Source of the DNA: Psammoneis japonica
Taxonomy: Eukaryota
NCBI GenBank assembly: GCA_008632985.1
Contig: QPGO01000066.1
Coordinates: forward strand, 62,001-126,000
Length of the DNA: 64,000 nucleotides
Direction of reading: 5' to 3'
Positions within the stretch are counted from its first letter, which is position 1; the number at the start of each line of letters is the position of its first letter. Shown in pieces: positions 19,246 to 50,640 of this stretch. The translations under genes and the position numbers were made by a program. Under the pieces are notes generated by a model that worked only from the letters and a program-made list of their open reading frames with translations, did no database searches and was not told where the DNA came from.

Positions 19246-19300
19246 AGAGTTCACTGCAAAAGGTGTGTCAACCTGTCTAACAGCATCTGTTGGCACCACT

Positions 19301-23111: not shown

Positions 23112-24265
23112 ATGGTCATTGGATTGATCTGTGTGGTGTCACATGAAGTCACCATAAGTCCTGCGGTGGCAGCCTTGTTGCATGCACAAAGAAACGAACA
23201 TGGGGAATTGAACAGATTCCAGCATGCAGGTGGCGATTCAAGTTCGGTGGTGACTCCCACAGAGGGATGTCTTGTGTTGGATCGTGCACCTGCGGTGGGC
23301 AAGAAATTGATAGCATCGATGTTGACTGAGGTTGTCAATGAGAGTGTTTGGCCACATCGCAAGTTCACAATCTTCGATCATGAACTCGCCGTGGGAGGAG
23401 ATTGCATGAAATTGGTTCTGCAGGAGTTGAGGAGCATGGCATCTTCACCGGAGAAGTTCTGGGATGAATGCAAAGAGGTGTTCAGGACCAAACTCAACCA
23501 AAAGAGGAACAATGTGTGGGACAACATCAGGAGGAGAATGACAGGCAAGCAGATGTGTGCGTGCCGGTGATTGTGTTGGAGGCGATTGTCCAACGGGATG
23601 AGTGTCTCTTCCTTTTGTGTCATCTGTGCAGTTGCTGCTTTAGAGGGATCGCTGGTGGATTACGAAGACTTGACAAAGGGAAGAAATGACAAGGACACAT
23701 GCACGTGGTTCTTGGAAACTGTGGTGCCCGGACGGTGGTGGGACAAGCGCAGTTTGGTGGAAGCACAACCGACATGCTTCAGGAATGGCTTTTGGTTTCG
23801 TCGGAGGCATTTGCTCTGCCAGTGTGCTTGAACTGCTGCAACAAGGTGCAGGACACGGCAGAGAAATTGGAAAAGGAAGAAAATGTTGCAAGGAGAAGAA
23901 AGCCAACTGTGAAAGATGCTGCTCCTGCAAAGTGCACAGTGCAGGCGGCGGGGGAATCGGCAAAGAGGAACCAAGGATGGAGCAAGGAGGGGATCAAGAA
24001 GCACAATGATCTGTGTCAGTGGGTGGTGAAAGACAGAGAGAACAACCAGGGATTTGGTGCATGGTTCAAGGAGAGAAGGCGGGAGAAGACAAACTTGTCT
24101 CAGGAGGAAAACAAGAAACGCAAAAGAGAGGAACAAAGAAAGGAGAGAGAGGAAGGATGGGCGGCGCCAATGGGAGAGGACCTGCCATTGCAGGCGGTGG
24201 CTGCAGGCAATGGAGCGGCAGCAAACAGTGCAATGGCCACCAACCAAACTGGTGTGCAAACGTAA
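23112..24265 (+). pseudogene. Companion ORF typical of diatom Plavaka/CACTA-like elements
   Basis: VWPHRKF...FWDECKEVFRTKLNQKRNN, SSEAFAL..CLNCC and KCT..GWSKEGIKKHNDLC..V.KDR (cf. S.EAFAL..N..YT..GWS.EG..RFN.L..V..DR). A probable intron lies near 23543-23644. Confidence 0.55.
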
Positions 24266-24639
24266 TTTGAAACAAACAACAAAATCCAGACAAGTGAAAA
24301 TTAAAAAAAAACATTGTGCGACACGGTTTAGATGCAATGACGTGTGGCAATTGGGAATTTGGATTTGAAAACGGCACAGCAAAGAGATAAAATGTAGGGC
24401 GAGTTGGTGAAAAAGGAGGGTGGATCACAAGCAGCAACATTTGTGTTAAAAGAACGAGAAACCCCAAATGTCAATTGGGGCGCAGGTCTGCATTGTGTGA
24501 AAGGAATGACCACACTTGAAAGTGAGAAGCGATTTGGGTTTTAGAAGCTCGTAAACTCACACAGTTCTCATGTTGTGTTCAAGGAGAGAATCGGCTTGTA
24601 AGTTGACAACAATCTGGCATTAAAGTCAAGAAACACCCA

Positions 24640-27600: not shown

Positions 27601-28400
27601 AAGCATGTTGACAAACCCTGAAAAATTCTTGATGCAATGGCCCAACACTTCCAAGAACACAACAGCATGGCGCAAGGTTCTTGTGCCCAGCTCACAAACC
27701 TCCTGCAAAGACAAAATGTTTGTTTTCTTGACAAAGCAGTGCACTTGTTTCACATGTGTTTGAAAACCACTTTCCACACCTTTTCTGGTTCAAAGAAATG
27801 TGGGCAGGTCAGTGAAATCGCCAAATGACCCGTCAATGATTTGGCCATGCCCGAATCCAAACCATTGCCATTTGCTGTTGTTGCAACATGCACAAGACTG
27901 AAAAAGCAGTGCTCCTGCTGTTGACACAATTTTTTGGCATCTTGCACATCAACACATGTGGCAGAGCTCAGCTCGGCAGGCAGCTCAAACGACTTGAGGT
28001 TGGCAGCATGGAGAACAACACACCGTCACTTTTTTGATGAAAAGAGATGACCAGGTTTTGGTGTCAAAACACACACTCCCAATTTTCTGCTCTGGCACCA
28101 TGTTTTAGTCTTTTCCTCCCTCTTCACAGCAACAAAAGGCACGGGGCACTTGCGCACACTTTTTGGCTGGGGGATCATCTGGGGCATTTGTTGCAGACAC
28201 ATTCACACGAGTGGGGGGTGGGGCAGTTCTAGGTTCTGAGATTCAATGCTCAGATTTCCACCATCCAAAAAAACTCCAAAATTGGAGTGGGGTGGGAAGG
28301 TGCAAGATTCTATGCTTGGAGAAGATTCATCTCTTCTTTGGTTGTGTGACCACAAGAATGAGCGAGGTGTTTGCAGTCATGCGCCTCGTGCCTGTCATTC
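24640..28400. mobile_element. Old degenerate repeat/TE relic, family unassigned
   Basis: Strongly depleted in both TpA and CpG, with fragmentary Cys-rich protein-like frames and no intact ORF. Confidence 0.4.
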
Positions 28401-28761: not shown

Positions 28762-29729
28762 CATGATAGCTTTTCCGTTGCGTAGAAGTTACAGTACCGC
28801 ATTCTTATTAACAAAATGTCTTCTTAAGAGCTTTTCCGTTGCATAGAAACACTACCGCTGATACCCTGTACAGTATTATGTACCTGGCATGTACAGTGCG
28901 TACGACAGATCGACAAACTCGTACGTAGGGCCCTACGTACATTACTTCTACATACGCACTTCTAGTCTTCTATTGTTGATTTTTTGTTGCGCCTTGTGCC
29001 GTTGCCGTAAAGACCATGACAGGTGGCGCTGTTTTCGACGCGTTCATGGTCGAGTGGCGCTGTGGCACTGCTTCATTGCGTTGTGACCAAGTGGTGCAAA
29101 ATCGAGTGTAATTTGACGAGAACAATGTTCCATTCAGGCACGCGCATTCATGCGAAAAGCCGCAAACGACGCAAGGATTCCACTTGTCATGTTTCATGTG
29201 CTGCACAGAAGAGACATGTGACCGATTCAATGCAAATGCCGGGCTACAATGTCAAAGTTTTCGGCACAATTCATCGTCTCTGATGCAAGCTGTGTCGTTG
29301 AGTCCACGAGATGCAATGCCTCGACAAAAAACGACACATCTTCGCAGACTCACACTTTTTGGAATCTTTCCAGTGTCAGTCCACACAATGAAGTTCCAAG
29401 TGTCAGCCCTGGCTTTACTCTCTTGTTTGAGCAGCTTGACTTCTCCGGCAGTTGCCCAACAATGTGACGGTCCAGGACGGAGGACTTGCAGAAACACGGC
29501 GGGCTGTGAGTGGGTGTTCCGCAGCTGCATCGATGCTGATTCGCTTGCTCAACAGTGTGACCGTCTTCCAAGGAGGATTTGCCAAAACACGGCGGACTGT
29601 GAGTGGGCAGTCCGCAGCTGCACCAATGCTAATTCGCGTGATCCATGTGTTCGGCTGAGGGGGGGAACGTGCAGAACCACCGAGGGTTGCTCATGGGAAC
29701 GCCGCAACGGCTGTGTTGCTGCTGGTGCG

Positions 29730-32700
29730 CCCCCGACGACTTCTCCCACCAAGTCAAACGCCCCCTCTAATGTTCTATCCAGAGCCCCAAGCAACAAGCC
29801 AACCGGCGCACCCAGCGGATCACCATCTGTTTCGCCTTCGTCTGATCCAACTGAATTCCCCACAGACATCCCAAGTGGCATTCCTTCGTCAGTTCCAACT
29901 GTTGCACCTTCTGCTGTGCCATGCTTGCACCAAGTGTCGTCCCTTCGACAGCGCCTGGCGTTGCAATGCCCAGCGGTGTTCCTTCAGGTGTTCCGAGCAA
30001 TGCTCCATCCAATGTGCCAAGCCATGTCCCCACTGTCGCTCCCTTTGGCATTCCGAGCAATTCTCCTTCAAGTTTGCCAAGCGCAGTTCCCAGTGGAGCT
30101 CCCTTGAATGCTGTCATTCCTTTGAATCTGCCAAGCGCCGTCCCGTCGGGAAACCCTGGCAATTTTCCGAGCCAGCCACCGAGTGATGCACCTTCGAGAT
30201 CGCCAAGTGCAGTTCCAAAAAGAGCTCCGCCCCCTCAATCAAGCAATGCGCCTTCAAGTCAACCAACTGCTTTGCGATCTGATGGTCCAAGCAACGTTCC
30301 ATCGTCAGCGCCTGGCGGTGTTCCTGGCATCACACCAAGTGCCGTTCCTTCGATTTTGCCAAGCGCCGTTCCGTCGGGAGCGCCCTCTCATGTTCCGAGC
30401 CAGTCACCCAGTGACGTGCCTTCGAGGTCGCCAAGTGAAGTGCCAAGTGGAACTCCCTCCGATGGTCCGAGCCAGACGCCGACGTCTCAATCAAGTGATG
30501 CGCCTTCGAGTCAGCCGACTGTTTCGCCATCTGATGACCCAAGTGTCGTTCCATTGTCAATGCCCAGCGGTGTCCCCAGCATCACCCCGAGTGCCAATCC
30601 TTCGATTTCGCCAAGCGGATTTCCGTCGGGAGCTCCCACCGATTTTCCGAGCCAGACTCCTAGCAACTCGCCTTCTAGATCGCCAAGTGTGGCACCCAGT
30701 GCTGCTCCCTGCAATGCACCCAGCCAGACACCAACGTCTCAATCAAGTGACGCGCCGTCAAGTCAACCCTCTGCTTCACCCTCTAATGACCCAAGCATCG
30801 TTCCATCGTCAGCACCCAGCGGTGTTCCTGGCATCACCCCGAGTGCCGCTCCTTCGATTTTGCCAAGCGCCACCCCGTCGGGAGCTCCCACCGGTGGTCC
30901 GAGCCAGTCACCCAGTGACATGCCATCGAGACCACCCAGTGCAGTTCCAAGTGGGGCTCCCTCCGTCGCTCCGAGCCAAATGCCAACGTCTCAATCAAGT
31001 GATGCACCTTCGAGTCAACCAACTGTTTTGCCCTCTGATGGCCCAAGTGACGTTCCATCGTTGGCACCTGCTGGCATTCCTAGCTTCGCACCGAGTGCAA
31101 TTCCTTCGATTTTGCCAAGCGGCATTCCGTCGGGAGCTCCCACCAATTTTCCGAGCCAGACGCCCAGTGTCTTGCCTTCTAGATCGCCAAGTGCAGCACC
31201 GAGTGCTGTTCCCTCCAATGCTCCCAGCCAGACGCCAACATCTCAATCAAGTGACGCGCCTTCACGTCAACCTTCTGATTCGCCATCAGATGGTCCAAGT
31301 GACGTTCCATCGTCAGCGCCCAGCAGTGTTCCTGGCATCACCCCGAGTGCCGTTCCTTCAATTTTGCCAAGTGCCACCCCGTCGGAAGCTCCCTCTAGTG
31401 CCAATGGCAAGTCACCAAGCGGCATGCCATCTAGATCACCTGGTGCAGTTCCAAGCGGGGCTCCCTCCGTTGCTCCGAGTGAAACGCCAACGTCTCAATC
31501 AAGTGGCACACCGTCAAGTCAGCCTTCTGCTTTGCCCTCTAATGGCCCAACTTGCGTTCCATCGTCAGCGCCTGGTGGTGTTCCTAGCGTCGCACAGAGT
31601 GCCATTCCTTCGATTTTGCCAAGCGCCATTCCGTCGGAGTCTCCCACCAATTTTCCAAGCCATTTGCCAAGTGACATGCCTTCGAGACTGCCAAGTGCAG
31701 CACCCAGTGTATCTTCCTCCAATGCTCCGAGCCAGATGCCAACGTCTCAATCAAGCAATGCGCCGTCCAGTCAACCGACTGTTTTGTCAAATGGCCCAAG
31801 TGACGTTCCATCGTTGTCGCCCAGCAGCATTCCCACCCCGTTGGGAGCTGCCACCAGTTTTCCAAGCCAGTCACCCAGTGAAATGCCTTCGAGATCGCCA
31901 AGTGCAGCACCCAGTGGAGCTCCCTCTAATGCCCCGAGCCAGATGCCAACGTCTCAATCAAGCAATGCGCCATCCAATCAACCTTCTGTTTCACCCTCTG
32001 TTGGCCCGAGTGACGTTCCATCATTGTTGCCTGGCGGTGTTCCTGGCAACACACCGAGCACCATTCCTTCGCTTTGGCCAAGCGCCATTCCGTCGGAAGC
32101 TCCCTCCAGTGCTCCTGGCCAATCACCAACGTCTTCTGCAAGTGACGCACCGTCCAGTCATCCAAGCGAGTCTCCCTCTTACGTTCCAAGCAGCGCGCCA
32201 TCATCAGTTCCTAGCAATGTTCCCAGCAGCTCACCGAGCATGGTTCCGTTGGAAGTTCCATCGACCATCCCAACCTTGGCTCCATCTCAGACACCCAGCG
32301 ACGTGCCATCGAGCTCACCAAGCGCCATTCCGTCCCAAGTGCCCTCTGATGCACCGAGCGAGTCACCAACATCAACTGCAAGTGACGCGCCGTCCAGTCA
32401 ACCTGGTGAGTCGCCCTCTGATGTTCCAAGCGATGGGCCGTTGGCAGCTCCAAGTGGCGTTCCCTGCAGCTCGCCAAGCAATGTTCCATCGGAAGTTCCT
32501 TCGATCATCCCAACCTTGGCTCCGTCACAGACACCCAGTGACGTGCCATCAAGCTCGCCAAGTGGCATTCCGTCCCACGTGCCCTCTGATGCACCAAGCC
32601 AATCACCAACGTCTTCTGCAAGTGACGCACCATCCAGTCATCCAAGCGAGTCTCCCTCTTACGTTCCAAGCAGCACGCCATCATCAGTTCCCAGCGGTGT

Positions 32701-35670
32701 TCCTGGCAGCTCACCGAGCATGGTTCCGTCGGAAGTTCCATCGACCATCCCAACCTTGGCTCCATCTCAGAAACCCAGCGACGTGCCATCAAGCTCGCCA
32801 AGCGCCATTCCGTCCCACATACCCTCGGATGCACCGAGCGAGTCACCAACATCAACTGCAAGTGACGCGCCGTCCAGTCAACCCAGTGAGTCGCCCTCTG
32901 GGACACACAGCATTTTGTCGCCAATTGCGACATTCCCACAAATGAATTGGATGATTTGTCGTGAAAAACACCCTTTGAGACAAATTTCAATCGTTGGCGA
33001 CAAACAAGACAAAATCATCATTTAATTGGCGATGGCGTGTCCCAAACACAAACGTTGTGTCAACCACAGTGCTTTGTGATGAATTTAACTTTCGGCGAAG
33101 ACTGCACTTGTCAATCAATGTTTTGGCGATTTTGTCGTACGTGCGACAAATTTTGTCGTGTGCGAAAAATTTTGTCGGACGTACGACAAATTTTGTCGCA
33201 TCCGACAAACCCCGACAAACCCTGACAAACCCCAACAAACCCCAACAACGTACGACAAACGCCGACAAGAGCCGACAAACGCCGACAAACGCTGACAGAC
33301 GGACGTTTGCGACACTGTCTCCACGAGATTTGCCTGCCGCTTGCTGGACCAGCAGAGAGCCAGGCCCTGGCTGCCTGCTGACAAAAGGTGCAGCACAGCA
33401 ATGCATGCCGGTGCATTCCATTCCACTGTGCAGAAGCGCACGATGTTGTCCCGGCATTGACGAGAGTGTGACATTTGGGGACATGGAGTGACAGTGCAAA
33501 ATTTCGAAATCAAAAAATTGGAGACCGCCGAGAGCGGCATGATCGTCGCTTTGCATCATCGCGCAAAAGAGACACAGTGTCAACGGAGACGCCAGCGGTT
33601 GGCGTGTGCGGCGGGGGGTGTGGGTGTTTCGTTCGTGAGTCGTCGTGTCGTGACGTGCAGTGATGTGACGTGTCGTGACGTGTTGTGACGTGTCCTGTCG
33701 TGTCGTGTCTTGTCGTGTCGTGTCTTGTCTTGTCTTGTCGTGTCGTGTCGTTGTCGTGTCTTGTCAGATGGAGACAAATTTTGTCAGATGAAATTTCGTC
33801 GATGACATCGATCGCCAAATTCTGTCAATTGCCCCACTCATTGAAACGACATTGCCAAAGTGCAGGTTGGTCATTGATGACATTGATCATTTTGTGACTT
33901 GGTTGGACAATGTTTCTGTCCCGTTTATCGCCAACCCAGACATTTTGTCGCAACTCGCGTCTTTTCGTGACAAATCATCAATTCATTTAAGAAAATGTCG
34001 CCAAATGCAACAAAATGCCGTGTGTCCCTGATGTTCCAAGCGATGGGCCATTGGCAGCACCAAGTGGCGTTTCCAGCAGCTCGCCAAGCAATGTTCCGTC
34101 AGAAGCTCCTTTGACCATCCCAACCTTGGCTCTGTCACAGACACCCAGTGACGTGCCATCAAGCTCGCCAAGTGCCATTCCGTCCCACGCACCCTCTGAT
34201 GCGCCGAGCCAATCACCAACGGCCACTGCAAGTGACGCACCATCCAGTCAGCCCAGTGTGTCGCCCTCTTACATTCCGAGTGGCATGCCATCATCAGTTC
34301 CCAGCAGTGTTCCTGGCAGCTCGCCAAGCAATGTTCCGTAGGAAGTTCCATCGACCGTCCCAACCTTGGATCCGTCACAGACACCCAGTGCCATCCCATC
34401 AAGCTCGCCAAGTGCCATTCCATCCCACGCACCCTCTGATGCACCGAGTCAGTCACCAACGGCCACTGCAAGTGACGCACCGTCAAGTCAACCAAGCGAG
34501 TCGCCCTCTGATGTTCCAAGTGATGTTCCAAGTGATGTTCCATCGACAGCTCCGAGTTTTGTTCCCAGCATTTCACCGAGCAACATTCCGTCGGGAGTTC
34601 CATCAACCGCCCCAAGCTTGAATCCGTCGCACACACCGAGCAAAGCGCCATCGAGCTTGCCAAGTGCCATTCCATCCCTGGCGCCCTCTGATGCGCCGAG
34701 CCAGTCACCAACAACCGCTGCAAGTGACGCACCGTCCAGTCAACCCAGTCAGTCGCCCTCTGATGTTCCAAGTGATGGGCCATCGACAGCTCCGAGTTTT
34801 GTTCCCAGCATTTCACCGAGCAGCATTCCGTCGGAAGTTCCATCAACTGCCCCAAGCTTGAATCCGTCGCAGACACTGAGCGACGTGCCATCAAGCTCGC
34901 CAAGTGCCATTCCATCCTTGGTGCCCTCTGATGCACCGAGCCAGTCACCATCAGCCATTGCAAGTGACGCTCCCTCTGGTCAACCCAGTCAGCGGCCCTC
35001 TGACATTCCGAGTGATGGGCCGTCATTGGCTCCCAGCAGTGGTGTTCCCAGCAGCTCCCCAAGCAATGTTCCATTGGGAGTTCCATCATTCACCCCAAGC
35101 TTGAATCCATCGAAGACAAAAAGCGATGTGCCTTCGAAGTTTCCCAGCCAGGTGCCATCTTCTGTCCCCAGTTTTGCACCTTCTGGAAACCCAGCATGTT
35201 GCCCAGTGGTGCTCCGAGTGAGATGCCAGCAGTGCCCAGTGTTGACCCTTCAAGTGCGCCGAGTGCAACGCCATCAGCAATGCCCAGTGATGTGCCATCC
35301 ATCTCTTACGCCCCCACAGGAGCACCATCAAGCTCTCCCAGCATGTTGCCCAGTGGTGCCCCGAGTGAGGAGCCATCAGCAGCACCTGGCGTTGCCCCTT
35401 CAAGCGTGCCAAGTGCGATGCCATCGACAATGCCCAGTGATGCACCATCAATCTCAAATGCCCCCACAGGAGCACCGTCAATCTCTCCTGGCATGTTGCC
35501 CAGTGGTGCTCCGAGTGAGGAGCCATCAGCAATGCCTGGCGTTGCCCCTTCAAGCGTGCCAAGTGCTGCGCCATCAGCAATGCCTGGTGATGCACCATCA
35601 ATTTCGAACGCCCCCTCGAATGCCCCCTCGAACGCCCCTGCAGGTGCGCCAACAAGCTCTCCCACTCGTG
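29730..35670 (+). repeat. Hierarchical coding minisatellite (Pro/Ser stalk): 252-bp, then 240/480-bp, then ~147-150-bp units
   Basis: TCAATCAAG anchors at 30487, 30739, 30991, 31243, 31495 and 31747. GCAAGTGACGC anchors at 32138, 32378, 32618 and 32858. CATGTTGCCCAGTGG at 35195, 35342 and 35492. Confidence 0.9.
32901..34027. mobile_element. Non-autonomous Harbinger-like element (MITE), ~65-bp imperfect TIRs, CTG target-site duplication
   Basis: CTG|GGACACACAGCATTTTGTC ... CAAAATGCCGTGTGTCC|CTG. Removing it restores TCGCCCTCTGATGTTCCAAGCGATGGGCC, matching the sister repeat unit at 32411. Confidence 0.92.
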
Positions 35671-37500
35671 ATCCGGCCAACGCTTTCAACATTGAGTTGG
35701 TCGACATGGGAGACAATGCTGCTCCTCCTGAATACGCTCAAGCGTTTGCCGATGCCAAGGCTCGATGGGAGTCTGTCATTACAAATGACTTGTCGGACAT
35801 CGCGCAGGCGTCATTCCATGGCATTTCAGACTGGTTCACAGGGCAGTTCTCACAACCTTGTACGGCAGCATTTGATGATCTTGTCATTGGGTTCGAAGTT
35901 GACTTCATCGATGGACCGGGCGGCACTCTTGGTCGAGCTGGCTGCAGATGCCGCATCGTCAGTCGCTGTGTAACTGGTGTCATGCAGTTTGAGTTGGTTG
36001 ATTTCCAAAGCTACGACCTTGACGACGCCAAAGTTGTCATTCTTCACGAGATGGGTGCGTTTTTGACGAGATTGTTGTGGCATTGGTCTAGCAATAATTT
36101 CTCACCTCAGCAATGTTTGTACTTCTCATTGTGAATGCATTTGTGGGACATGTTCTTGGGCTTGTTGGGCTTCTTTCGTCGTGCGGTGACGGGTGTCCAG
36201 CAACGACCTTTGCTTGCCAGTGCTCACTTGCTGTTCAGGAGCACAACTTGTTGGACCGATCTACTCTCCTGGACAGTACATTTAACAATGCTCTCTGCCT
36301 CGAGGACATTAATCGCCCCGGCACACAGTGCAGTCACTGGGAAGAAGAAAACTTCAGAACAAGTCAAAGCTCGGAGCTTGTGACTGGCTTCTTCGAGAGC
36401 TTTCTCTTCCAGCCAATTTCCCGAGTTACGCTTGCCGCATTGGATGATTTGGGGGTGCACACTGTCGACCACAGCAATGCAGACCCTTGGCCTGCTGAAG
36501 GGACACGTCACCGTGAACCAAAGGATAGAAAGGAGCCCAAGTTTCCCATGCTTCAGACGAAGTCACGCTTTTACCTCCCCGACTTGATGGAAGACCTGCC
36601 TCCCCCCATTCAAATTGCTGACCTGTCTCCCCGAAAGAAACCGCCTCCCAAAAAGAAACGGCACCCCCGAAAGAAACCGCCTGCCCAAAAGAAACTGCCT
36701 CCCCGAAATAACCTTCGAAACCGCCATCGAGGTTGTTGACCCATCCATGCCAGAAGGAACCTTCGAAACTAGAGACAGGGATTTCTTGTGGGGCACACAG
36801 TTGCTTTAGTTGAACAAATCTAATGTCATGCGGGCACCACACAACTGGCGCATAAAAGTTGCTGTGCTGCGTGGCGTTTGCATTCCTGACATGACGAAAT
36901 CCGAATTCGTGCACGGCATTTTTTAGAATGATGTGCTCGACAGTGTCATCTTGAAATGTCTGTCATGCACAGTGTCTTGGATCTTCGGTGTCATGCCTCT
37001 AGAGTAGAGTCTCCTGCGGCTCTCTAGTGCTGTCTAGAGATCTCCCAGTGATGGACTGGAATGGCTTTGCTGGCGGATGCGCAAGCCTCATTCCCAAAAA
37101 CCCAAGCTGGAACGGCAGGGCCAGAGGGCGGGAGAGGTGGGAGCGTTAAAAACTGTCCAGCGGCTTCTTGCTCTTTGTTGCTCTTTGGAAGAATGAGTGA
37201 AACAAGCGAGAGAAAAGAGCAAAAAACCGTCATTTGCTCGCCAAGCTCGCGCAAGCACGTTCAAATTTGAATTCAAATGGTTTTTTGACCCGACGGTCAA
37301 AAATGGGTCATTTGCCTCGTTGCACTGCACAAGGTGGGCGGCTCACGCCGCCCGTCTTGTTCCTTCTCCTGCGGCTCTCTAGTGCTGTCTAGAGATCTTC
37401 CAGTGATGGACTGGAATGGCTTTGCTGGCGGGTGCGCAAGCCTCATTCCCAAAAACCCAAGCTGGAACGGCAGGGCCAGAGGGCGGGAGAGGTGGGAGCG

Positions 37501-38697
37501 TTAAAAACCATCTAGCGGCTTCTTGCTCTTTTGAGGATTCTGAGGGACGTCAGCATTGGGGTGTGGGACGAAGTTGCCGCTGGCGAGCATGTTGCGAGCG
37601 AAGTTGCGCATGACTGGTTCTGCTTGCAAATGCAGGTGTCGCAACATTTCGTCAGATTGCCAGCGACCTAAGAGCCGAATGAGATTGGTGTCAACGCGGG
37701 CACAAAGGAGGGCCATTGCCCCAGCGGCACGAAGACACCGAGCGGCAATGTCTCGGGTGGTGAAGCCAAGATTAGCCGGACCGAGAGCAGTGACAGCATT
37801 GCGAAGCATGCTGGTGATGTCGGCCGGGGACACACGACGCCAGGTGTTGTTTTGAAAGCAAACACCAAGGGGTGTGTCAGGCAGTGCACCATGGGTGCAC
37901 AAGTGTTGGACACAGCGGATGAGGGCTTGAACCGGGCACAGGTGAGGGTGACCGGAAAGACCGAGCCCCAGAACTTTGCCTCGCACTCCATTCTTCCTGG
38001 TGGCAAATGTGAGAGTGGCGAAGGTTGCTGTGTCAAGGTGTGCAAGTGGAACTTGCATGGAAACAAGATGAGCACCACCGGATGCAAGCCGGACATTGGC
38101 GAGACGAAAGGGGGTGGCATCGGATGGTGTTGCGGTGCATTCGCCAGGCTGCAACAAAAAGAAAAAGGTGACGACAATCATGTCAGCAACAGCTTGTGTG
38201 CCCGGGTCATTGCTGAGGGCTGCGGCGGTCATAATCCATTGCAGCACTGCAATTGGAACAGGTTTTGCACAGTCTGGGGGTGGATCCTGCTTCTTGTAAA
38301 AACGGACTTGCCGGGTGAGACGGAAATCCATTGTGCCTTGGGATGTGTGGCGCGGATCCGGGGACCCCATTGCAGTGAACGTTTGGCCAACCGAACGTGC
38401 GGCATCTTCAGCGGTTCTTCCACGGACGGGATTGCCCATCGGCGCGAGGACTCCTGTGCGGCAGCGGTGCAAGAAGACTCGGAGGAAGACAACGGGGTCA
38501 TCAACGTCTTCGAGGAGTGGGTCGATGGCCAAAGAGGAGCAGAACTCTTGCCATTTGTCCCAATGGGCATTGGCGGCGGAGGCTCGGGAAGAGGCAACGC
38601 CATGCTGGACGGCGTGTTGAGCAGCATTGAGATCACACATGAACTCAGCTCTGGTGGAGGCATCCAGAGACGCCAGGAGAGTGTCCGCGGATGGCAA
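37501..38697 (-). pseudogene. Tyrosine recombinase of the retrotransposon (catalytic Tyr now His)
   Basis: FFFLLQPGECT (cf. LRPGEYT), RKNGVRG, LCPV, ARCLRAAGAMAL and GRWQSDEMLRHLH (cf. GRW.SD.MLRYLH). The His codon CAC is at 37636-37638. Confidence 0.88.
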
Positions 38698-40500
38698 AAA
38701 TTAAAATGGCGCAGGAATTCACGGTTGGACAAAGACTGCAGGCGGGAGGCATCGTCAGCGGCAGTGTTGAGGCACCCAGGTAAATGGTCATGCAACCCCA
38801 AGCAGCGATGGCAGCGTTGATGGCAGGATTGGTGTCGAAGCAACCGGGAGGCGGGTTTGATGGTGGTGGTGGCACCTTTACGTTGCCAATGCATGGTGCC
38901 TGAATTGTCGGTGCGTGAAAGGTTGGTGCGTTCACGGTGTCAAAGCAGTCGGCGGCGCCGCAGGACTGGATGACACTGCTGGCAAGTTCCAGGTCTGTGT
39001 TGGTGATGGGACCTCTTGGGTTGGAGAAAGTGGAGAGTTGACTGCTGACACTTTTGGGGAAAGGCAGTCGCCACACTACAGGACCCGCATCTCTCTGTTG
39101 ACAGCATCGGCAATTGCCGAAACGGAGAGTGGCTGCTCAAGGTGCTGTGGTGCTGGCAGGTGGAAGGACGCCGCCTGCACCGTGACCTGCAGCATCATGA
39201 CAACTGGTGAGTGTTGGTCTCAGTGGAACCAATTCTTGAATGAGAACGGGTCGGGTGTCTGGGGCAGATTCTAGATCCCGAAAGTCATCCAGTGCGCAGT
39301 GCGCAGTGGCAGAGATCCGGAGGCGTGAGTCCGGCATGGTGTGTCGGAGATTTTCTTGGAGCACTGAGAAGAGACCCCGGGAGCCAGGGATGGCAATGCT
39401 CAAAGAGCGCAGCTCTCCCAGCAGCTTTTGACAATCAGAGACTGTGGCACGTTTACATGTGCGGAGAAAATCCTTGTGCAGCGTTGCACGAAGTCGGGCA
39501 CGCCGACGGGGCGTGAGCCGGATGGTCATAGCGCAAGTGTCTGTGAGCCATCCCAGGACTTCTTTCTGCGTGGACCATGTGGCATCACCCTGGCGGAGCT
39601 TCTTGACGGAGACGGGCTCCTTGCGGGTGGCTGGGTCGTGTGCATCGAGTGGGCGAAAGACGTCATCGAGAGCGTGCAGTGTCACACGGTGGACATTGCT
39701 CCGGGCTCGTTTGGATCCTTGCGCAGCACCAAGGAAGTCATCCACACAGATGTCAATGCATTGCAAGCGGCGGCGCCGATGCGGTCGAAGGTGTGGGTCG
39801 GGCGTGTCAGGAATGGGCACGGCCTGTGAAGCTGCGGCAACTTGTGGTGGTTGGTGCTTCGGCGGGCGGCCATCTAAGAGCGCTTCCAGCGGATGTGGCG
39901 GCGCTTGGACGTTGCGCACCAAATCCAAATTGGCGACATCGGCGACAGTTTCCGTTGACGTGCAGAACAATGGCGGGGAGTTGGCCCAGCCCATGGGCAA
40001 GCGTGTTGGAATTGCAACCAATGGCGGCTCTCCCGGTTGGCTTGGGAATGCTGCACCAAGTGCAGGAGCCTGTTCTGGTGCGACTTGCATGCAGCAACAA
40101 CCATCAGCCAGGTCTATCTTCATGAGGTAGACGGTGCCTTTTTTAGGATCGGCAAGGAGGATGCAGCGTAGAAGGCGGTCAAAGGCAAGTCCGAATTGCA
40201 TTGCTTCCATTGCAGTGTTGGGTTGCGTGGAAGTGTTCAGCCCATGGCAGGTGCAGTCCACGATGGGACGGGGACGTCGACCATGTTGAGGCACAACGCC
40301 AATTGGACTTGGGCAAAGACCGGGGGCATGGCGCACTTCCTCGTAGGGGACGACAACCCAAAAACCTTTTTCGACCACATCAGCCATGTCCTGGTGCAAA
40401 AACTCGATGTGTTCGTAGGCGGATTTGTGTGGACCCCTGGAGACACTAGCGTCTAGCTCAGCATGCGTCCATGGTGCATCGGCGGCAGTGATGGGGGCAC
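38645..40500 (-). pseudogene. Reverse transcriptase/RNase H of the retrotransposon, degenerate
   Basis: SPIGVVPQHGRRPRPIVDC, AMQFG, KIDLADGCC, LPMGWANSPPLFC, DICVDDF (cf. YVDD), KEVLGW, LLGELRS, DAAGHGAGG and ITNTDLELA. Confidence 0.88.
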
Positions 40501-40789
40501 CTCGGCACTTGCAAGTGCTCAGAAGTCGATGAGCTGGGTGTTGCTTGACTCAATGGAGTGGACCCCAATCGCCTCTGCCACTGCGGTGATGCAACAAGTG
40601 ACTGAGGCCTTTACGACGCAGCAACCCAGCATCAATTCGCATGTGCTCACCTGGTTTATCATCAAAGATTGCGGCAGCAACATCCTGTCCACGGGTGGTG
40701 GGGTGGGTGTGCTGCCTCTTGAAACTCTCCACAGTCGGGGGTTGTGGATGCAACAGCGCATCGGCCATCGCGGGTGAAGGCTCTCGGCT

Positions 40790-43023
40790 CCAAGTCCCCG
40801 AACTTGGGCCGTTGTCGAAGACCTGTTCGGTCTTCCAGTTCTCCTCACCCCAGGTGAGAAGGGTGGCCTGTTCGTCTTCTGTGTGGTCATTGCGATGATC
40901 ACAGGACGAGCCACAGTTGGTGTTGCATTGCCCTTTGTAATGGCAAGGGAAGCAACGAGGGCGACCTTGGGCATCTTTGGGGAGGTCGATGTTGTCCCTT
41001 GCGCATCGGTTTTTGACATCGCGTGACCTGACATTGGGACGGTCCCGGAGCGTGGAAAAGCGGTTGTCGCAGGAAGGATTTCGGACTGCGCTGTTGCTTC
41101 CTGCAGCTTGGCTGGTGGGGGCCATGTTGTTGGCAGGCTGGCATTGAGATGCTGGGGCCGGTGTGCCAGCAGGCAAGTGCAGATGCCAGCAAACGATTCC
41201 TTCAGCTGCTTCAAACACAACGTTGAAGGGTGTGAATGGCAATGGGTGGAGTGAGGCTTCTTGAGCCTTGAACCAATGGTGAGCTTCAATCTGCACATGG
41301 CGTTGAAAGTCCACGGGAAGGGTTGGGCACCAAGTGGCCTGTGCTGCCAATTCATTGGTGTGTCGGTCCATGTCTTGACATTGACGGGTGAGCCACTGGA
41401 CGACTGGATGGTTGGCCCCAAGCAAAGCAGAAAGCACCAGATGGCATCCATCGCACGACTTCTGGGCGGCTTGCATTGTCGTTGCCATGAGCGCCTTGTC
41501 TGGAGCTTCCAGGATTTGAGTGTCCTGGAGGGACGGGGCCGCAGTGCCGCCATGAATGTGCACATGCATGGCCCTGCGGCAGGCAATCTGTTCGGCACTG
41601 TCTGGTGCAGTGATCCCAAATTGGAAGGGGGTGATGCCTTGGGTGGGCTCGTCTTGATTGTGACCAGCAAATTCGAGCTGCACGAGCTTGGCAACGAGAC
41701 TGACAGTGACAGGTGCGTTGAAATGGACGGCCATTGCCTGGCGTTGCTCGTCAATTGCATTTTGGACAACTGCCAGGCGGCCTGTCTTTGGCGCCGCGGC
41801 AAGTGCAGCCCACACAGGTGGCAATGCCATCTCGTTGAGGACGTGGCACCAATTCATGAGCTTGTTGACACCGAAAGGTCCTCAAAATTTGTTGGGCACC
41901 TTGCCCCGGGCAGCCGCTTGCTGACGTGCTGTAGCATCAAGTCGAAGTTGGCGTTGCTCAGTGGTGAGCCCTTCAATGGCTTGCATGACTGGCTGGAAGT
42001 GCTGCGCAGTGGGTGGCGCATGGCCCAGTCTCCCAGGGATGTCACGCAACACCTTGGCATCAAAGAATTGGATGAGGGCTTCATTGGGGGGCGTGTCATG
42101 ACAGGCCAAGGTCGTGTCACAACAGACACCATTTGGTCATTGGCAATGGCACAGCAGGCGACGCAAAGAAAATCGAGCAGTGGTCGGATGGCAGCCACTT
42201 TGTTGGCTGCCGTGGCGGTGCCGTGCACCCGCTGATGGGCTTGTTTTGGGCACAAGGGTTGTGCCAACAAGAGCGGCACAAACTCAAATGGCACATGCAC
42301 TGCATTCCTGGTTCGCACGACCTCCGAATTTTGTGCATTCTCAGCCAGATGCGGATGCAGGCCGTCCGCATTGTTGGTGACATGCTCCAACAGTGCAGCA
42401 TGAGTCGGCACCCTAGTCCCCTGCTGTGCCAGATTGAACGAGTCGTCTCCAAATTCAACCAGAGTGAACTGTCCACGGGTTGGATCACCCGCCATTGCAT
42501 GCACTTCACCGTCCCAAGGTTCGGCGGGCCCAACCACGGTCGTCGGACAAGTGGTGACGTGGTGGAGGACTTGAGTCTGTCCTTCATCTGCTGCACCAGC
42601 CTCTCGACAGTGCACGATGACTGCCATCGGCTGATCGTGACTTGACACCGCTGCAACTCGCCCATGCAGTGTTCCAGGGTTGCATCTGGAAGGTCCCTGA
42701 ACCGGGACCGTGAAATCCAACATTGAATCATTGCATGCCCCCTGATGTGGGTCGTTGGCGGCAGCAAGGTAGAAATCACGACAAGTTGAAATGACCGGCG
42801 GCGCCGCCGGCACGGCTTGGGCACCCGGTGGCGGTGGCTGTGCTAAGGCTCCTGCTGCTTGCGGTGCCAACAGAGGCACCGGAACTTGAGGCGGAGGAGG
42901 TGGCAGAGCGTTTGGGACCACCGCGGCGGCTGCTGCAGCTCCTCCTTGCGGTGGAGCCGGATCGTTGACATTTGGGGCGTTTTGGGCCCCTTGACCTGCG
43001 TTTTGCTGCTGTTGCGCGTCCAC
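40790..43023 (-). pseudogene. Gag-like ORF of the retrotransposon, frameshifted
   Basis: Pro/Ala/Gln-rich N-terminus and a terminal CFPCHYKGQCNTNCGSSCDH zinc-knuckle-like motif just upstream of RT. Confidence 0.65.
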
Positions 43024-43312
43024 AATGAACCCAACAAAGATTCTTCCTGCGAGCAATGGGAAGCTGCGGCAGAGGCTCCTGCGCCGCGTCGACAGCGTTA
43101 AAAACCATCTAGCGGCTTCTTGCTCTTTGTTGCTCTTCGGAAGAATGAGTGAAACAAGCGAGAGAAAAGAGCAAAAAACCGTCATTTGCTCGGGCAGGGG
43201 AGCTGTGTGTGTGTGCGTGGTTGTGCGCGCACGGCTTTGCCGTGCATTGAGTTTTAATGTTGTCATCCACACGAATGTGCGTGTTCCACAAGTAAAAATT
43301 CCCATTCCACAG

Positions 43313-45296
43313 CTCCCCTAAAACTCTAACCACCAAAAACCGAGGGGTTGGAAGTGCACTTTCGGGAGCTCTTTTTCTCCGCACAAAAAACACGCGTTTC
43401 GTCGACTCGACCATGATGATGCCTCGTGGTTCTTCCCCATCACCTTCCCAGGACGCCGATCCTCTACTGACACCGTTGCCAATGACACTGACACAACAGG
43501 CAATGTCATCATTCCGGTTCTCGTGGGTGTGACACGTACAAAATAAGATGCTACAAACTCACACTGTTGTTTGCACGCTCCACCGCCTCCCACAGATGCT
43601 GTCACGAATTCCAACGCCGCACCTGCGTTTCGGGCCCCCAGCATGCCGACACTGTTGCTCCTGCCCTTGCTGCCGCAGGCACTGTTGACACTGTTGTTGC
43701 ATTTTGCCAATGACGTCCACAATGAAATGCCAACAACTCACACTTCTTTCATTCTCGCCCCACCGCCTCCCACAGATGCTGTCACGAATTCCAATGCCGC
43801 ACCTGCGTTTCGGCCCCCCAGCATGCCCGACACTGTTGCTCCTGCCCTTGCTGCCGCAGGTGCTGTTGATGCTGTCACATGCCCGACACTGTTGCTCCTG
43901 CCCTTGCTGCTGCAGGTGCTGTTGATGCTGTCATTGTCTTTTGCCAACAACGTCCACAACGAAATGCTTGTAACTCACACTTCTTTCATTCTCGCCCCAC
44001 TGCCTCCCACAGATGCTGTCACGAATTCCAATGCTGCACCTGCGTTTCGGCCCCCTGGCATGCCTGACACTGTCAATCCTACCCTCGCTGCTGCAGTCAC
44101 TGTTGACACTGTCATTGTTTTTGCTTTGGAAGGAACACAATGGATGACGGATGACGGCGGACCAGGAAACCCACGCAACCACGGCCTGCTGATGGACGAC
44201 ACATCAATGGACATGAATGGTGCCTCTTGGTTGGCTCTCGAGTGCAGTCTAATCTTTAGAATGTGCAGACACATCATGCAGCTCTCTGCAAATTAGAAAC
44301 CTGACAACAATTGGATGGCAGGCATGCTTTCACAGTTTTTTAGTTTCAAGTTGGAGAGGTCAGCGAATTGGCATTTGTTTGCAGGCGACTTGGCAAGGTT
44401 TCAAATGGTGCATGTGACTTGGACACTGCTCCATTTTCCAGGACTGGGTCATTGTGCACAATTCCATAAGAGGCCACTCTCGCCGCTTGAATTCTACATG
44501 TGATGCACAACGTGCTGTTTTTGCATGTTGCTAAAATGGAGGCAGGCAGCAACGTGCTTTTGGCAAATGCTCACTGTGTTTGTCGCTGTCAGACCTTCAA
44601 AACTGGTGCCTTGTCGACAGCCATGCTGCCACTTTGCATGCCGGCACCTTCTCTGCCCGCATTCCATTGGCTACGTCCTCCTTCACATGTTGCTGCGGTT
44701 CACATTGACACTTTTTGTTGGCTCCGATTGGTTCTGCTGGGCTCTGGGTGAGTCTCAATCACCTCCAGATGGACAAGGTTCTGCTTGGGAATGATCATCC
44801 TGAGAAAGGTTGTCACCACACCTCCTGTCACAGATGCTCCTCTGCCACGCCCACTGAACCTTGACATCGGTTTGTTGCTTTTGTTTTTTAACCTGGTTTC
44901 GGAGCTGCACCCCAGACCGTTTGAGAGAAGGCTCATCAGTGCCTTCCACAACACGGCGGTGCGAACGAGAATCCAGTTTCTCCGGGGACGCAATGACAGG
45001 AGCAGACCAATCACGGCGCTGTGTTTGTGTTTCAGGCACAGGATCTGGCGAACAGAAGCCCAAATCCTCCGGATGGCAAATCGGCTGTGTTTGGGTAATG
45101 ACAGCGGGTGCAACGGCACCGGCCAACACAGGAGGGACTGCCGCATCAGATGTGGCAGGCGGGGATGCGTCAGGTGGTGTGGGGGACGAAGAACGGGAGG
45201 TCATCATGGTCGAGTCGACGAAACGTGCAGAGAAAAAGAGCTCTCAAAAGTGCGCTTCCGACCCCTCGGTTTTTGGTGGTTAGAGTTTTAGGGGAG
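43313..45296. mobile_element. ~2-kb element with ~100-bp terminal inverted repeats; superfamily unassigned
   Basis: CTCCCCTAAAACTCTAACCACCAAAAACCGAGGGGT...TTTCGTCGACTCGACCATGATGA at 43313-43419 is mirrored at 45201-45296. No clear TSD was found. Confidence 0.8.
43575..44115. repeat. Three imperfect tandem copies inside the TIR element
   Basis: GCCTCCCACAGATGCTGTCACGAATTCCAA at ~43585, ~43765 and ~44002. Confidence 0.85.
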
Positions 45297-48330: not shown

Positions 48331-50274
48331 CTAAGACACTTGAGCTTTCCGTCGAAACCGCCGCTTCAAGTTGCCAGAGGCACCCTTGACTTGCTCCTTG
48401 ACCACTCGCCGTGCCAATCGCCGTCCACCCGACGTCTTGAGAACATCTCGAATGACTTTTTGTCGTTTAAATCCCGTCATGTGGGCCGAATCGTCCAATA
48501 GCTTGGAAATCTTGTCCAACTCGACACGTCCCGTTTCCGACGACCTCAACAAGTTTTGCAACGTGTCATCCATGACACTCGAATGGGTGGGATTCACCAT
48601 GAGTCGATTCAGTGCGTACGGATACAACATCTGCAGTATATTAAAGTCGCTGTCCAAGGACCGCGCCATGCCTTCGAGAATTCCCAGAGCACGTGCCTTT
48701 TGCATAAAGTACGGTGGCAGTTGAAAACGAAACCGCGGCACGAGCCCCGTCAGAGCGCTAATGAGCTTGTCAAATTGCAAGTCTGGAAATTCAATGGAGT
48801 TGTCGCCATTAGAATCGGGATAAATGAGCACATCATTCATGGTTTGATTGAGCGCTTGCGTCAGCGCCTTTCGTTCCTCTGGATCATCAATGACATCTTG
48901 TGGTACAATTTGGAGTTCCGTCAAGAGCATGGCGACCGCCTCGGAATCATGATCAAAGACCAAATGTGCCACGGCACACACCAGTGCATCGCGGACTTGT
49001 TGTGGTACAAAGGCCAATAAGCCAAAATCCAAATAACCCAGTTGCGGTGGTCCTTTTCCGCCATTACTCTTGATTTTGAGCAAATTACCTCCATGCGGGT
49101 CGGCGTGCAAGACACCCGTGTCCAACAATTGACTCAGTGTGCAATCAATCGCTTGTTTAATGACTAGTAAATTCTCGGACGACTCATTATCATGGTGAGT
49201 AGATGTTTCATCCAAATTGGTCAATTTCGTCCCATCCAACCATTCCATGACCAGTACATGTTCGGTACAGAGATGTGGATAAATTTCAGGCACCACCACT
49301 CGTGCATGTGACCTGGATGACTCTGGACGACGCGTCGAATACAACTTGGCAAAGGTTTCGGCATTGTTGGCTTCGTTGCGATAGTCCAATTCTTGAAAGA
49401 CTTTATCAAAAAATTCCTCCACGGAATCTTGCAATTCGGCCGCAATCAACGTATCGAGTTGTTTGCCTCCAAGAAGAAACGCCGGTGGGGCTGGAATGGA
49501 TTCGACGATGTGAGCTAATTTCTTTAATAGAGCAGCATCGCGTTGCATGAGTTTGTAAATATCGGGACGCTGAACCTTAATGGCGACAAGGTCATGTTGG
49601 TTGAGTTGCACCTTGTAGACTTGTCCGACACTGGCCGTGGCAATCGGATCGTCTTGGAGCGACTGTAAGACATTGTTCATTTCTTCCCGAGAAAGTACGT
49701 CACTCAATTCATTCTTGACAATGTCTTGTGCCACTTTGGAATCAAAGGGTTGCATGCAATCCTGGAGTTTTGACAAGGAATTGGCAAGCGACGGAGGAAT
49801 GGCGTCGGCACGAGATGCGAGAGCTTGACCAAATTTGACATAGACGGTACCCAATTCCTCGAGTGCTTCTGTGAGTATTTGTCCATTGGACTTGTCAGAA
49901 TTGTTGTGGCGTTTCCAAAATTCATTCCAATCACCCTGGGGGGGACCGTCTTGCAAAATTGACGCCGACAGGGGAATTGCAATATGCTTCAAGACAATGC
50001 CGGCAATTTCGAGAGCCCGAACAATTGGTGGTTCTTGTAATATATGATCCACAGACGCTGCTTCAATCGCTAGACACGTTTCATCGTCCTCATCAAATGG
50101 ATTCCAATCGTCGTCATCAACAATAACAGTTGGTGAAGCGTTATCGGGTATCGTCGTCTGTATGGATTGTCTTGTTGTTGTCAGTCGTGGTGCCGAAACA
50201 GCAAAACCATCACACCGCCACTGCGTCAATGTAAAGCTCAACAATAGCAAACATTGCAATAATAGGCGACTCAT
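48331..50274 (-). CDS. ABC1/UbiB (ABC1K) atypical protein kinase, probably plastid-targeted
   Basis: LG.VYVKFGQALASR.D, LQD, PIATASVGQVYK, VAIKVQRP, ELDYRNEA.N, VLVMEW, LHADPHGGNL and YLDFGL. The signal peptide ends CDG-FAV. Confidence 0.93.
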   Translation of the reverse strand: MSRLLLQCLLLLSFTLTQWRCDGFAVSAPRLTTTRQSIQTTIPDNASPTVIVDDDDWNPFDEDDETCLAIEAASVDHILQEPPIVRALEIAGIVLKHIAIPLSASILQDGPPQGDWNEFWKRHNNSDKSNGQILTEALEELGTVYVKFGQALASRADAIPPSLANSLSKLQDCMQPFDSKVAQDIVKNELSDVLSREEMNNVLQSLQDDPIATASVGQVYKVQLNQHDLVAIKVQRPDIYKLMQRDAALLKKLAHIVESIPAPPAFLLGGKQLDTLIAAELQDSVEEFFDKVFQELDYRNEANNAETFAKLYSTRRPESSRSHARVVVPEIYPHLCTEHVLVMEWLDGTKLTNLDETSTHHDNESSENLLVIKQAIDCTLSQLLDTGVLHADPHGGNLLKIKSNGGKGPPQLGYLDFGLLAFVPQQVRDALVCAVAHLVFDHDSEAVAMLLTELQIVPQDVIDDPEERKALTQALNQTMNDVLIYPDSNGDNSIEFPDLQFDKLISALTGLVPRFRFQLPPYFMQKARALGILEGMARSLDSDFNILQMLYPYALNRLMVNPTHSSVMDDTLQNLLRSSETGRVELDKISKLLDDSAHMTGFKRQKVIRDVLKTSGGRRLARRVVKEQVKGASGNLKRRFRRKAQVS

Positions 50275-50640
50275 TGTGCAAATAGGGTTGATAATATGGC
50301 AAGAAAGAGAAACACTCGTCGTGTTCTTTGCACATTCTTCGGGTTGTGGTGTCAACTCTGCCGTGCGACTTTTTTTGGAATTTTGAGGTTGGCGTGCGCG
50401 CGACTTTTTTTACTGTTGAAGCACGAACCAAATTACCTTATTCATATTAGGGAAATACACTAAAGATATATATTTGATCAAATGAAAAAACCTTATTCAA
50501 GTTTCCACCCTATGCATCTTTATCAGCATCTTTCTCGCAACGGCCGCAGGATCGCAGATGATGATGGCTGCGGCGGCGCTATTACTGTTTTGCCATAGGC
50601 CCTACCGGATGCACAACTCCACTACCCAATGCAATCAGGC

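Follow-up and report, generated by a model that had tools for sequence, protein, structure and literature searches.

Footprint of a probable TAY-specific mutation process in TpA-poor mobile DNA of an apparent diatom

Introduction

How does a transposable element come to lose nearly every TpA dinucleotide and keep its AA, AT and TT? The question is raised by 64,000 nucleotides of Psammoneis japonica (positions 62,001 to 126,000 of contig QPGO01000066.1, assembly GCA_008632985.1), henceforth the window, in which a dead copy of a tyrosine-recombinase (YR) retroelement of the DIRS/Ngaro-like kind has been almost emptied of TpA. All positions below are those of the window, and 'the element' stands for the 6183 bp at 37010..43192 (57% G+C). 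Hypermutation of TpA in foreign DNA is already known from one other lineage, Bigelowiella natans, in a 2026 preprint. For the element, a first-pass annotation had proposed that the surviving sites betray a preference for a three-base motif (RTA or TAY, where R is a purine and Y a pyrimidine) exerted on both strands. The following features, among them several open reading frames (ORFs), make up the element; a strand is given where there is one.

37010..43192, minus strand: TpA-erased dead copy of a YR (DIRS/Ngaro-like) retroelement, recognized from its TpA content, ORF order and repeats
37010..37531: split direct repeats of the 3' end, with A at 37010-37141, B at 37142-37253, A again at 37365-37496 and the start of B at 37497-37531
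37501..38700, minus strand: tyrosine-recombinase ORF (YR ORF), 399 amino acids (aa) from stop to stop, with the presumed catalytic Tyr replaced by His, recognized from homologues and a predicted structure
39137..40549, minus strand: reverse-transcriptase-like (RT-like) ORF of 470 aa containing CVDD, recognized by alignment to ORF2 of its relatives
40550-41881 and 41854-43317, minus strand: two upstream open frames at the positions of the relatives' ORF1 and ORF2 start, with no Pfam match
43094-43197: the other copy of B, found by repeat comparison

TpA census of the element

The element retains 36 TpA, in agreement with the 35 or so estimated earlier by eye, and this amounts to an observed/expected dinucleotide ratio (O/E) of 0.13. 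CA (1.57) and TG (1.46) are in excess and CG stands at 0.74, while AA (1.29), AT (0.95) and TT (1.19) are not depleted. The survivors are CTAG (10), GTAG (6), TTAA (4), CTAA, GTAA and TTAC (3 each) and TTAG (2), with ATAA, CTAC, ATAG, CTAT and TTAT occurring once each. Grouped by class, they comprise 19 YTAR, 11 RTAR, 6 YTAY and no RTAY. This is what the first-pass annotation had described: about half of the surviving sites (19/36) are YTAR, the rest (17/36) belong to the two mixed classes, RTAR and YTAY, and RTAY is missing altogether (0/36).

Counting the 16 NTAN tetramers against expectation, as had been suggested, uncovers a strong departure, with YTAR over-represented and RTAY under-represented. 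From base composition, RTAY, mixed and YTAR sites are expected at 8.9/18.1/8.9 (chi2 20.3, p 4e-5), and from a first-order Markov model at 7.8/18.0/10.2 (p 4e-4). A third null comes from the element's own family, represented by 80 loci that encode kin of its recombinase and were found by scanning metagenome contigs. Relatives of similar G+C (GC 0.52-0.62; 182 kb) have fractions of 0.267/0.564/0.169 for the same three classes, from which the element departs with a chi2 of 37.7 (p 7e-9). No relative is erased (0/80; TA O/E 0.38-0.88); across all 80 the RTAY share lies between 0.15 and 0.36, against 0 in the element, and the YTAR share is at most 0.28, against 0.53. The terminal repeats hold second copies of five of the 36 sites, and when these are removed (n=31; 0/17/14) the probability of finding no RTAY is 6.6e-5, with a chi2 p of 1e-5. 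The RTAY-less, YTAR-rich split is not a matter of chance.

A trinucleotide rule across the window

The erasure of TpA is block-wise, occupying 3001-6000, 8501-10500, 14001-28200, 29001-45000, 56501-57500 and 60001-64000. In the TA-poor blocks, pooled here with the exclusion of a Pro/Ser-rich gene (29001..36100), 214 TpA are divided into 99 YTAR, 55 RTAR, 49 YTAY and 11 RTAY, against 139, 290, 217 and 313, respectively, among the 959 of the host remainder of the window. YTAR outnumbers RTAY in nine of nine TA-poor blocks. Set against the family baseline, the element has kept 0.61 of YTAR, 0.16 of mixed sites and less than 0.06 of RTAY; across the window the corresponding densities relative to the host are 0.405, about 0.10 and 0.028. 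Survival is thus multiplicative over the number of targets, in the order YTAR > mixed > RTAY. Because CpG survival in the element is 0.76 against the same family baseline, far above that of RTAY and mixed sites, methylated CpG must decay many times more slowly than TAY sites.

We fitted a Poisson model in which both strands contribute to the loss, the share of each being governed by nothing but the nucleotide that follows its A on the 3' side, and in which each such nucleotide has one parameter. TA-T, TA-C, TA-G and TA-A come out with extra log-losses of 1.93, 1.10, 0.17 and 0, and the gain over a context-free model is considerable (likelihood ratio 190.7 on 3 degrees of freedom). With the host as baseline, the 16 tetramers leave a residual deviance of 10.3 on 12 degrees of freedom, and replacing the host by the relatives does not alter the order (1.67, 1.15 and 0.51 for TA-T, TA-C and TA-G). 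The flanking signal is concentrated next to the dinucleotide, with a chi2 of 133 at the +1 base, 23.8 at +2 and 6.5 at +3. In 1-kb bins, TA O/E falls as CA/TG rises (Spearman rho -0.80), goes together with CG O/E (rho 0.71), and shows no correlation with AA/TT (rho -0.10) or AT (rho 0.01).

The multiplicative survival, the two-strand fit, the uniform behaviour of the nine blocks and the product shift described below bear out the idea of a three-base preference acting on both strands. Its corollary, that RTAY is hit twice and YTAR spared, holds for RTAY and needs correction for YTAR, which is reduced to 0.61 and not fully spared. The first-pass annotation had also favoured an enzyme footprint over GC-biased drift. 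Such drift should have lowered AA, AT and TT, which are undepleted, and it is rejected. The footprint of a mutator is supported, with the enzyme itself a proposal. The same annotation had named two outcomes as contrary to its view, survivors following base composition and an equal depletion of AA or AT; the surviving tetramers depart from composition, and AA and AT show no depletion.

Products and direction of change

If TpA has been converted, its products should still be visible. Compared in sense orientation with 14 relatives of at least 5 kb, the element has 25.1 TA and 18.5 CG fewer per kb, and 29.0 CA and 27.9 TG more. The gains in CA and TG are nearly equal, and therefore both strands are hit alike. 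The three-base model makes a more specific prediction for mixed sites, namely that YTAY becomes YTGY and RTAR becomes RCAR. These products together reach 54.2/kb in the element as compared with 34.1 in the relatives (+20/kb), and the unpredicted YCAY and RTGR 42.5/kb as compared with 36.7 (+6/kb), the losses being 14.2/kb for mixed TA and 7.5/kb for mixed CG. The shift is significant against the relatives (Fisher odds ratio 1.37, p 2e-4), and the figures agree quantitatively with the three-base model.

The proteins tell the same direction of change. In an alignment of the YR ORF with 61 homologues, four conserved Tyr columns differ from the consensus, three having become Cys (TGC) and one His (CAC). 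The His sits at the nearly invariant Y355, in the motif ...RSDEMLRYL..., which we take as the catalytic tyrosine of the recombinase; this replacement is the reason to call the copy dead. A single one of the 399 residues is Tyr, whereas the 61 homologues average 2.0%. Other changes of TA type are Val to Ala (GCA), Leu to Pro (CCA) and Thr to Ala after a T. Altogether, among 23 substitutions at well-conserved columns, seven are of TA type and nine of the kind left by CpG decay (Arg to Cys, Arg to Gln, Asp to Asn, Glu to Lys, and Ala to Thr after a C). A DDE transposase ORF elsewhere in the window (5188-5763) has undergone Tyr to Cys, Tyr to His (twice), Ile to Met (twice) and Val to Ala at conserved columns, as well as Lys to Glu, Arg to Gly and Ile to Val, each after a T. 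Two unrelated transposon proteins, then, both display replacements of TA type at conserved columns.

Sequencing reads provide a further view, through the 40 best supported of 645 differences between this copy of the element and other copies. Among these 40, the element has TG or CA where the others have CG at 21, and TG or CA where the others have kept TA at five, with the predicted product at two of the five (GTAC and ATAC). Part of the CA/TG excess is due to CpG decay, which accompanies the loss of TA. The replaced Tyr codons and the TA kept in other copies together imply that TA was lost, rather than missing from the outset.

Identity of the element

Split direct repeats in place of long terminal repeats are a defining trait of YR (DIRS/Ngaro-like) retrotransposons. 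The element carries them, one end having the layout A-B / A-b' and the opposite end a B, and the copies, 96-97% identical, differ by one CTAG/CCAG and one CA/TG change. Intact relatives have an ORF1 of about 700 aa, an ORF2 of about 860 aa with FVDD, and then the YR ORF, an order that the element shares. The YR ORF has 587 homologues, and its AlphaFold model (mean confidence score pLDDT 87.7) finds its best match in the Protein Data Bank (PDB) in Cre recombinase (E 7e-8, probability 1.0, TM scores 0.53/0.63), so that the predicted structure has the recombinase fold expected of a YR retrotransposon. Pfam finds no domain in the YR ORF, and no match above threshold in any of the element's five ORFs. 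The RT-like ORF is 49% identical to ORF2 of intact relatives, and alone it gives no Pfam match even at E up to 1; sub-threshold RVT_1 matches appear in 15 of the 17 members of the ORF2 alignment (best E 6e-5), and the profile of that alignment meets HIV-1 RT weakly (E 0.008). Neither the YR profile nor ORF2 of a relative retrieved a match when PDB sequences were searched. The CVDD of the RT-like ORF was considered as a case of Tyr to Cys and ruled out, most relatives carrying FVDD. All in all, 'tyrosine-recombinase retroelement' is a fair name, with RT as the weakest part of the label.

The family is present in many copies in the organism, contig word depth being about 370-2540 over the element and 55 in its unique flank. 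In some read contigs 37512 is linked directly to 43130, and 37159 to 43120, without the interior; members of the family that are solo repeats, arranged in tandem or circularized could give such junctions. Between 36000 and 44500 there are 26 open frames of at least 100 aa on the two strands, and these weigh little as evidence for genes because the erasure of TA also removes TAA and TAG stops. Two of 120 public relatives of the recombinase, P0003 and P0115, are poor in Tyr (2 and 3 residues) and rich in His and Cys; further erased copies therefore appear to exist in public data.

Other TA-poor blocks and host genes

The remaining TA-poor blocks, with the DDE ORF and a host gene that serves as control, are as follows.

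3001..6000: block A, remnant of a PIF/Harbinger-type DDE transposon; TA O/E 0.19; RTAY 4, mixed 16, YTAR 15
5188-5763, plus strand: DDE transposase ORF, with 2028 homologues
8501..10500: block B; TA O/E 0.16; RTAY 0, mixed 12, YTAR 7
14001..28200: block C, the most erased; TA O/E 0.07; RTAY 3, mixed 33, YTAR 31
29001..36100, plus strand: Pro/Ser-rich tandem-repeat coding region; TA O/E 0.11; RTAY 7, mixed 15, YTAR 17
36101..37009: left flank of the element; TA O/E 0.29; RTAY 2, mixed 7, YTAR 7
43193..45000: right flank of the element, with short repeats D7, D9 and I1; TA O/E 0.19; RTAY 1, mixed 9, YTAR 9
48331..50409, minus strand: host ABC1-kinase gene, the control (Pfam ABC1, E 6e-54); TA O/E 0.46-0.47 in its bins
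56501..57500: block F, paralogous to part of block G; TA O/E 0.07; RTAY 0, mixed 1, YTAR 3
60001..64000: block G; TA O/E 0.07; RTAY 1, mixed 9, YTAR 8

What is erased comprises the YR retroelement, the DDE transposon and further blocks that have no assignment. Host genes are spared, the TA-poor Pro/Ser-rich gene being the exception. The DDE ORF itself reaches Pfam DDE_Tnp_4 at E 0.0074, and four of ten homologues tested pass; block A also contains a scaffold gap of 85 N at 4036-4120. In block C, CG O/E goes down to 0.13, and a piece of 2 kb (26001-28000) has no TpA at all at 47% G+C, with a CpG O/E of 0.13 and a CA/TG O/E of 1.88. A repeat check ruled out that block C is a tandem array. A 602-aa ORF in this block has no homologue and no match among viral contigs, and another (20799-21587, plus strand) has a PhyH (phytanoyl-CoA-dioxygenase) domain (E 1e-5), perhaps carried along by a large insertion of mobile or viral origin.

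Between two TA-poor domains, and just upstream of the Pro/Ser-rich gene, lies a sharp island of 500 bp (28501-29000) with 36 TpA (O/E 0.84), at which a 66-nt direct repeat is found (28459-28524 and 28648-28713). Perhaps it is a promoter region left untouched by the process. The gene downstream has a Pro/Ser/Ala-rich open frame (29855-36000, plus strand) built of tandem units of 252 and 240 nt; could this be a mucin- or extensin-like surface protein? As an internal comparison of copies with their consensus, its repeats give evidence neither way, since the consensus of both units has no TA, and the copies deviate from it with an ordinary spectrum. The TA poverty of this gene could come from composition, or from an erasure older than the expansion of its repeats, and the gene was for this reason kept out of the pooled counts. 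Farther along, block F contains repeats D11, D12 and D15, and the paralogous segments at 56.4 and 60.5 kb differ most commonly by CA/TG (13 of 713 aligned dinucleotides), which could derive from ancestral TA or CG.

Host genes in the window have long uninterrupted exons and intact frames, and their bins have TA O/E of 0.46-0.68. Among the best 120 matches of the ABC1 kinase, every one with a stated organism is a diatom (44-53% identity). The C-terminal part of an anion-exchanger-like gene (11068-12210, minus strand) has, after an acidic stretch, three copies of a ...KKTVSCPPHMLFAE... motif.

What may have erased TpA

The explanation that we regard as probable is a mutation process aimed at particular regions, in which TpA becomes TpG or CpA on both strands alike. 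Its unit of recognition would be 5'-T-A-Y-3', where A is replaced by G (on the other strand 5'-R-T-A-3', with T replaced by C), at rates in the order TAT > TAC >> TAG ~ TAA. An RTAY site would offer one target per strand and be the first to go, RTAR and YTAY would offer a single one, and YTAR, with none, would decay slowly. As for the chemistry, the likeliest course is that deoxyadenosine would be deaminated by an enzyme to deoxyinosine and then copied as G, the pocket of the deaminase reading a 5' T and preferring a 3' pyrimidine, and the enzyme would be recruited to silenced, CpG-methylated repeats or foreign DNA. The parts of this scheme do not deserve the same trust. That a TAY-specific mutational process has been at work is very likely; that it consists of adenine deamination has a little less than an even chance. 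The CpG poverty of the erased blocks suggests that the process is directed to chromatin that is methylated or silenced. The sequence itself demonstrates that TA was lost and CA/TG gained, that Tyr codons went to Cys or His, that the context is a 3-mer, that the two strands are affected equally, that the loss comes in blocks and that it goes along with CpG decay. We infer, for our part, action in place on chromosomal DNA, the deaminase nature of the agent and its choice of regions.

Several observations weigh against this scheme and have to be set beside it. Both baselines are proxies, since the relatives come from other organisms at about 50% aa identity and the host DNA consists mainly of genes; measured against the relatives, the two-strand model fits worse (deviance 26.8 on 12 degrees of freedom), GTAG being observed 17 times where 7.2 are expected. 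YTAR, which should carry no target, is itself lowered to a survival of 0.61. The ratio of predicted to unpredicted products, 1.27, is 2.0 standard deviations above that of the relatives, whose range is 0.56-1.53, and against the host the product shift is weak (odds ratio 1.14, p 0.02). The unpredicted product is found at three of the five sites where other copies keep TA (GTAG, CTAT and TTAT), and the reads belong to three runs of one sample, possibly the one assembled, so that they are not independent. The repeats of the element are 96-97% identical and have one TA/CA difference, and therefore most of the erasure predates the last duplication of this copy: most of it was inherited from a parent copy, and action in place is presumed. 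Finally, the process is read from sequence, and double-stranded sequence is blind to whether chemistry is directed at A or at T.

This last point opens the way to a thymine-aimed chemistry, in which the T of 5'-R-T-A-3' would be altered, say by oxidation or glycosylation, or cut out, a C taking its place during copying or repair, with adenine left untouched. Every sequence result fits it equally, T to C at RTA being the complement of A to G at TAY, and enzymes that modify T before A do exist, as in the making of base J in kinetoplastid telomere repeats. We know of no T-to-C mutator of this kind, however, and in the one experimental study of the phenomenon it is adenine deamination that is put forward, again unproven; we think thymine chemistry unlikely. 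Less credit still goes to a context-free lesion, where all TpA would be damaged equally and repair would favour TAR over TAY, leaving a footprint that belongs to repair. It predicts the same multiplicative survival and accounts for the partial loss of YTAR, and nothing observed here is directly contrary to it, but it calls for two specific activities in place of one. Editing of RNA or cDNA during the replication cycle (ADAR-like on RNA, or in the manner of APOBEC on first-strand cDNA), fixed at integration, would suit a high-copy retroelement, and the near-identical internal repeats of the erased copy imply that much of the erasure was inherited from its parent. Yet strand asymmetry would be expected, and in sense orientation CA and TG have risen by 29.0 and 27.9/kb, with survivors at a YTAY:RTAR ratio of 11:6, the 2:1 of the family. 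ADAR, moreover, prefers the triplet 5'-UAG-3', according to the part of the report available (PMC11334849), whereas TAG is here among the best-kept contexts (log-loss 0.17, against 1.93 for TA-T). With the DDE DNA transposon and the flanks of the element erased as well, such editing is very improbable.

Two further explanations appear to us even harder to sustain. One is error-prone repair synthesis in heterochromatin by a polymerase of the Pol eta kind, which errs from A to G at WA with TA as a hot spot, and the process is indeed regional; against this, AA is undepleted (O/E 1.29) and uncorrelated with TA O/E, and a loss of more than 94% of RTAY far exceeds the error signature of a polymerase. 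The other dispenses with any special mutator and invokes GC-biased gene conversion, ancestral composition, selection against TA, or an artefact of sequencing or assembly. To be sure, TpA is under-represented in most genomes, the TA-poor blocks are more GC-rich on average (rho -0.57), and the Pro/Ser-rich gene demonstrates that TA poverty can be compositional. But AA, AT and TT are at full level and none of the 80 relatives is erased; the conversion of catalytic and conserved Tyr codons runs contrary to selection; host genes in the window have ordinary TA and intact frames, and other copies in the reads keep some TA, so that an artefact is unlikely. We give each of these two accounts hardly any credence.

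Comparison with known systems

In fungi, repeat-induced point mutation (RIP) changes C to T at CpA, leaving repeats with an excess of TpA and a deficit of CpA and TpG. The likeness is that of regional, dinucleotide-specific transitions on both strands which ruin mobile or repeated DNA and leave a signature in dinucleotide indices. The sign is opposite here, with TA at 0.13 and CA/TG at about 1.5 in the element, and a link to duplication, proper to RIP, is not part of the present evidence. ADAR and APOBEC hypermutation, known from viruses and retroelements in animals, affects a single strand of RNA or cDNA and is strand-asymmetric, and APOBEC alters C, not A. Common to these enzymes and the present case is a nearest-neighbour footprint of the deaminase type, and ADAR also favours a 5' U or T. 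In contrast, the window exhibits no strand asymmetry, TAG is spared, and the change is A to G, or T to C on the other strand.

Enzymes of the TadA/ADAT2 type (amphioxus BjADAT2/3 and the engineered adenine base editors) are, to our knowledge, the only ones that deaminate deoxyadenosine in DNA. Their natural target in tRNA, A34, always follows U33, which matches the 5' T seen here, and the target loop of bacterial TadA, U-A-C-G, matches the 3' pyrimidine. We know of no substrate of eukaryotic ADAT2/3 with U35, whereas TAT is the best target in the window. In the available part of its description, amphioxus BjADAT2 acts on DNA in the contexts GAA for A and TCG for C, with a preference for hairpin loops (PMC10354150), unlike the TAY found here. 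The comparison with known signatures that the first-pass annotation had called for thus yielded no match: ADAR (UAG) and Pol eta (AA as well) disagree, and for TadA/ADAT-like enzymes the one context compared, GAA of ADAT2, does not fit.

The closest counterpart is B. natans, which we know from the accessible portion of the preprint (10.64898/2026.01.13.699255). In mutation-accumulation lines of this alga, 231 of 302 nuclear mutations fell in two integrated viral regions; 230 of these 231 de novo mutations were A to G or T to C, and each lay at a TpA of single-copy chromosomal DNA (10.64898/2026.01.13.699255). Its genome has TpA-poor clusters rich in CpA and TpG throughout, enriched in RT and DDE domains, and an ADAT2-like protein was proposed as the agent; in the region derived from a nucleocytoplasmic large DNA virus, TA O/E is 0.45 (10.64898/2026.01.13.699255). 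Going by that portion, the two cases share the change of TpA to CpA or TpG, kilobase blocks, foreign or mobile DNA as the object, and both strands. They differ in depth, the present erasure being at TA O/E of 0.07-0.19, with one piece of 2 kb that has none, against 0.45, and in host, which here groups with diatoms and not with chlorarachniophytes. They also differ in that the blocks erased here are CpG-depleted as well, and in that the present case is known from accumulated sequence change and not from de novo mutations. The main text, in the same portion, states no flanking-base preference and does not mention diatoms (10.64898/2026.01.13.699255). Our literature search turned up B. natans as the only organism with reported TpA erasure, and nothing of the kind for diatoms.

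Significance

What is new here is the TAY rule, an apparent diatom as host, the near-complete erasure of two classes of transposons and the link with CpG decay. The window thus presents chemistry of the B. natans type in an apparent diatom, nearly complete and with a defined third base. A ranked, strand-symmetric trinucleotide motif can serve as a fingerprint open to test: it speaks against sources of the ADAR or Pol eta kind, can be checked against published de novo mutations, and provides a biochemical assay for candidate deaminases. There is also a practical consequence for annotation. Erased transposons, having lost their TAA and TAG, keep long frames and evade domain searches, so that gene finders and repeat annotators misread them; gene finders would over-call genes in 37010-43400.

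It is conceivable, if somewhat less than evenly likely, that a diatom-like alga possesses a defence that mirrors RIP, in which a TAY-specific DNA adenine deaminase, recruited to methylated or silenced mobile DNA, would go on replacing A by G in both strands until no Tyr codons, TATA-like signals or stops are left. If this is true, then, taken together with B. natans, TpA hypermutation would be old, or would have evolved repeatedly, across the SAR (stramenopile, alveolate and rhizarian) supergroup, and the TAY footprint would give a handle on an enzyme that is the natural counterpart of the adenine base editors of the laboratory.

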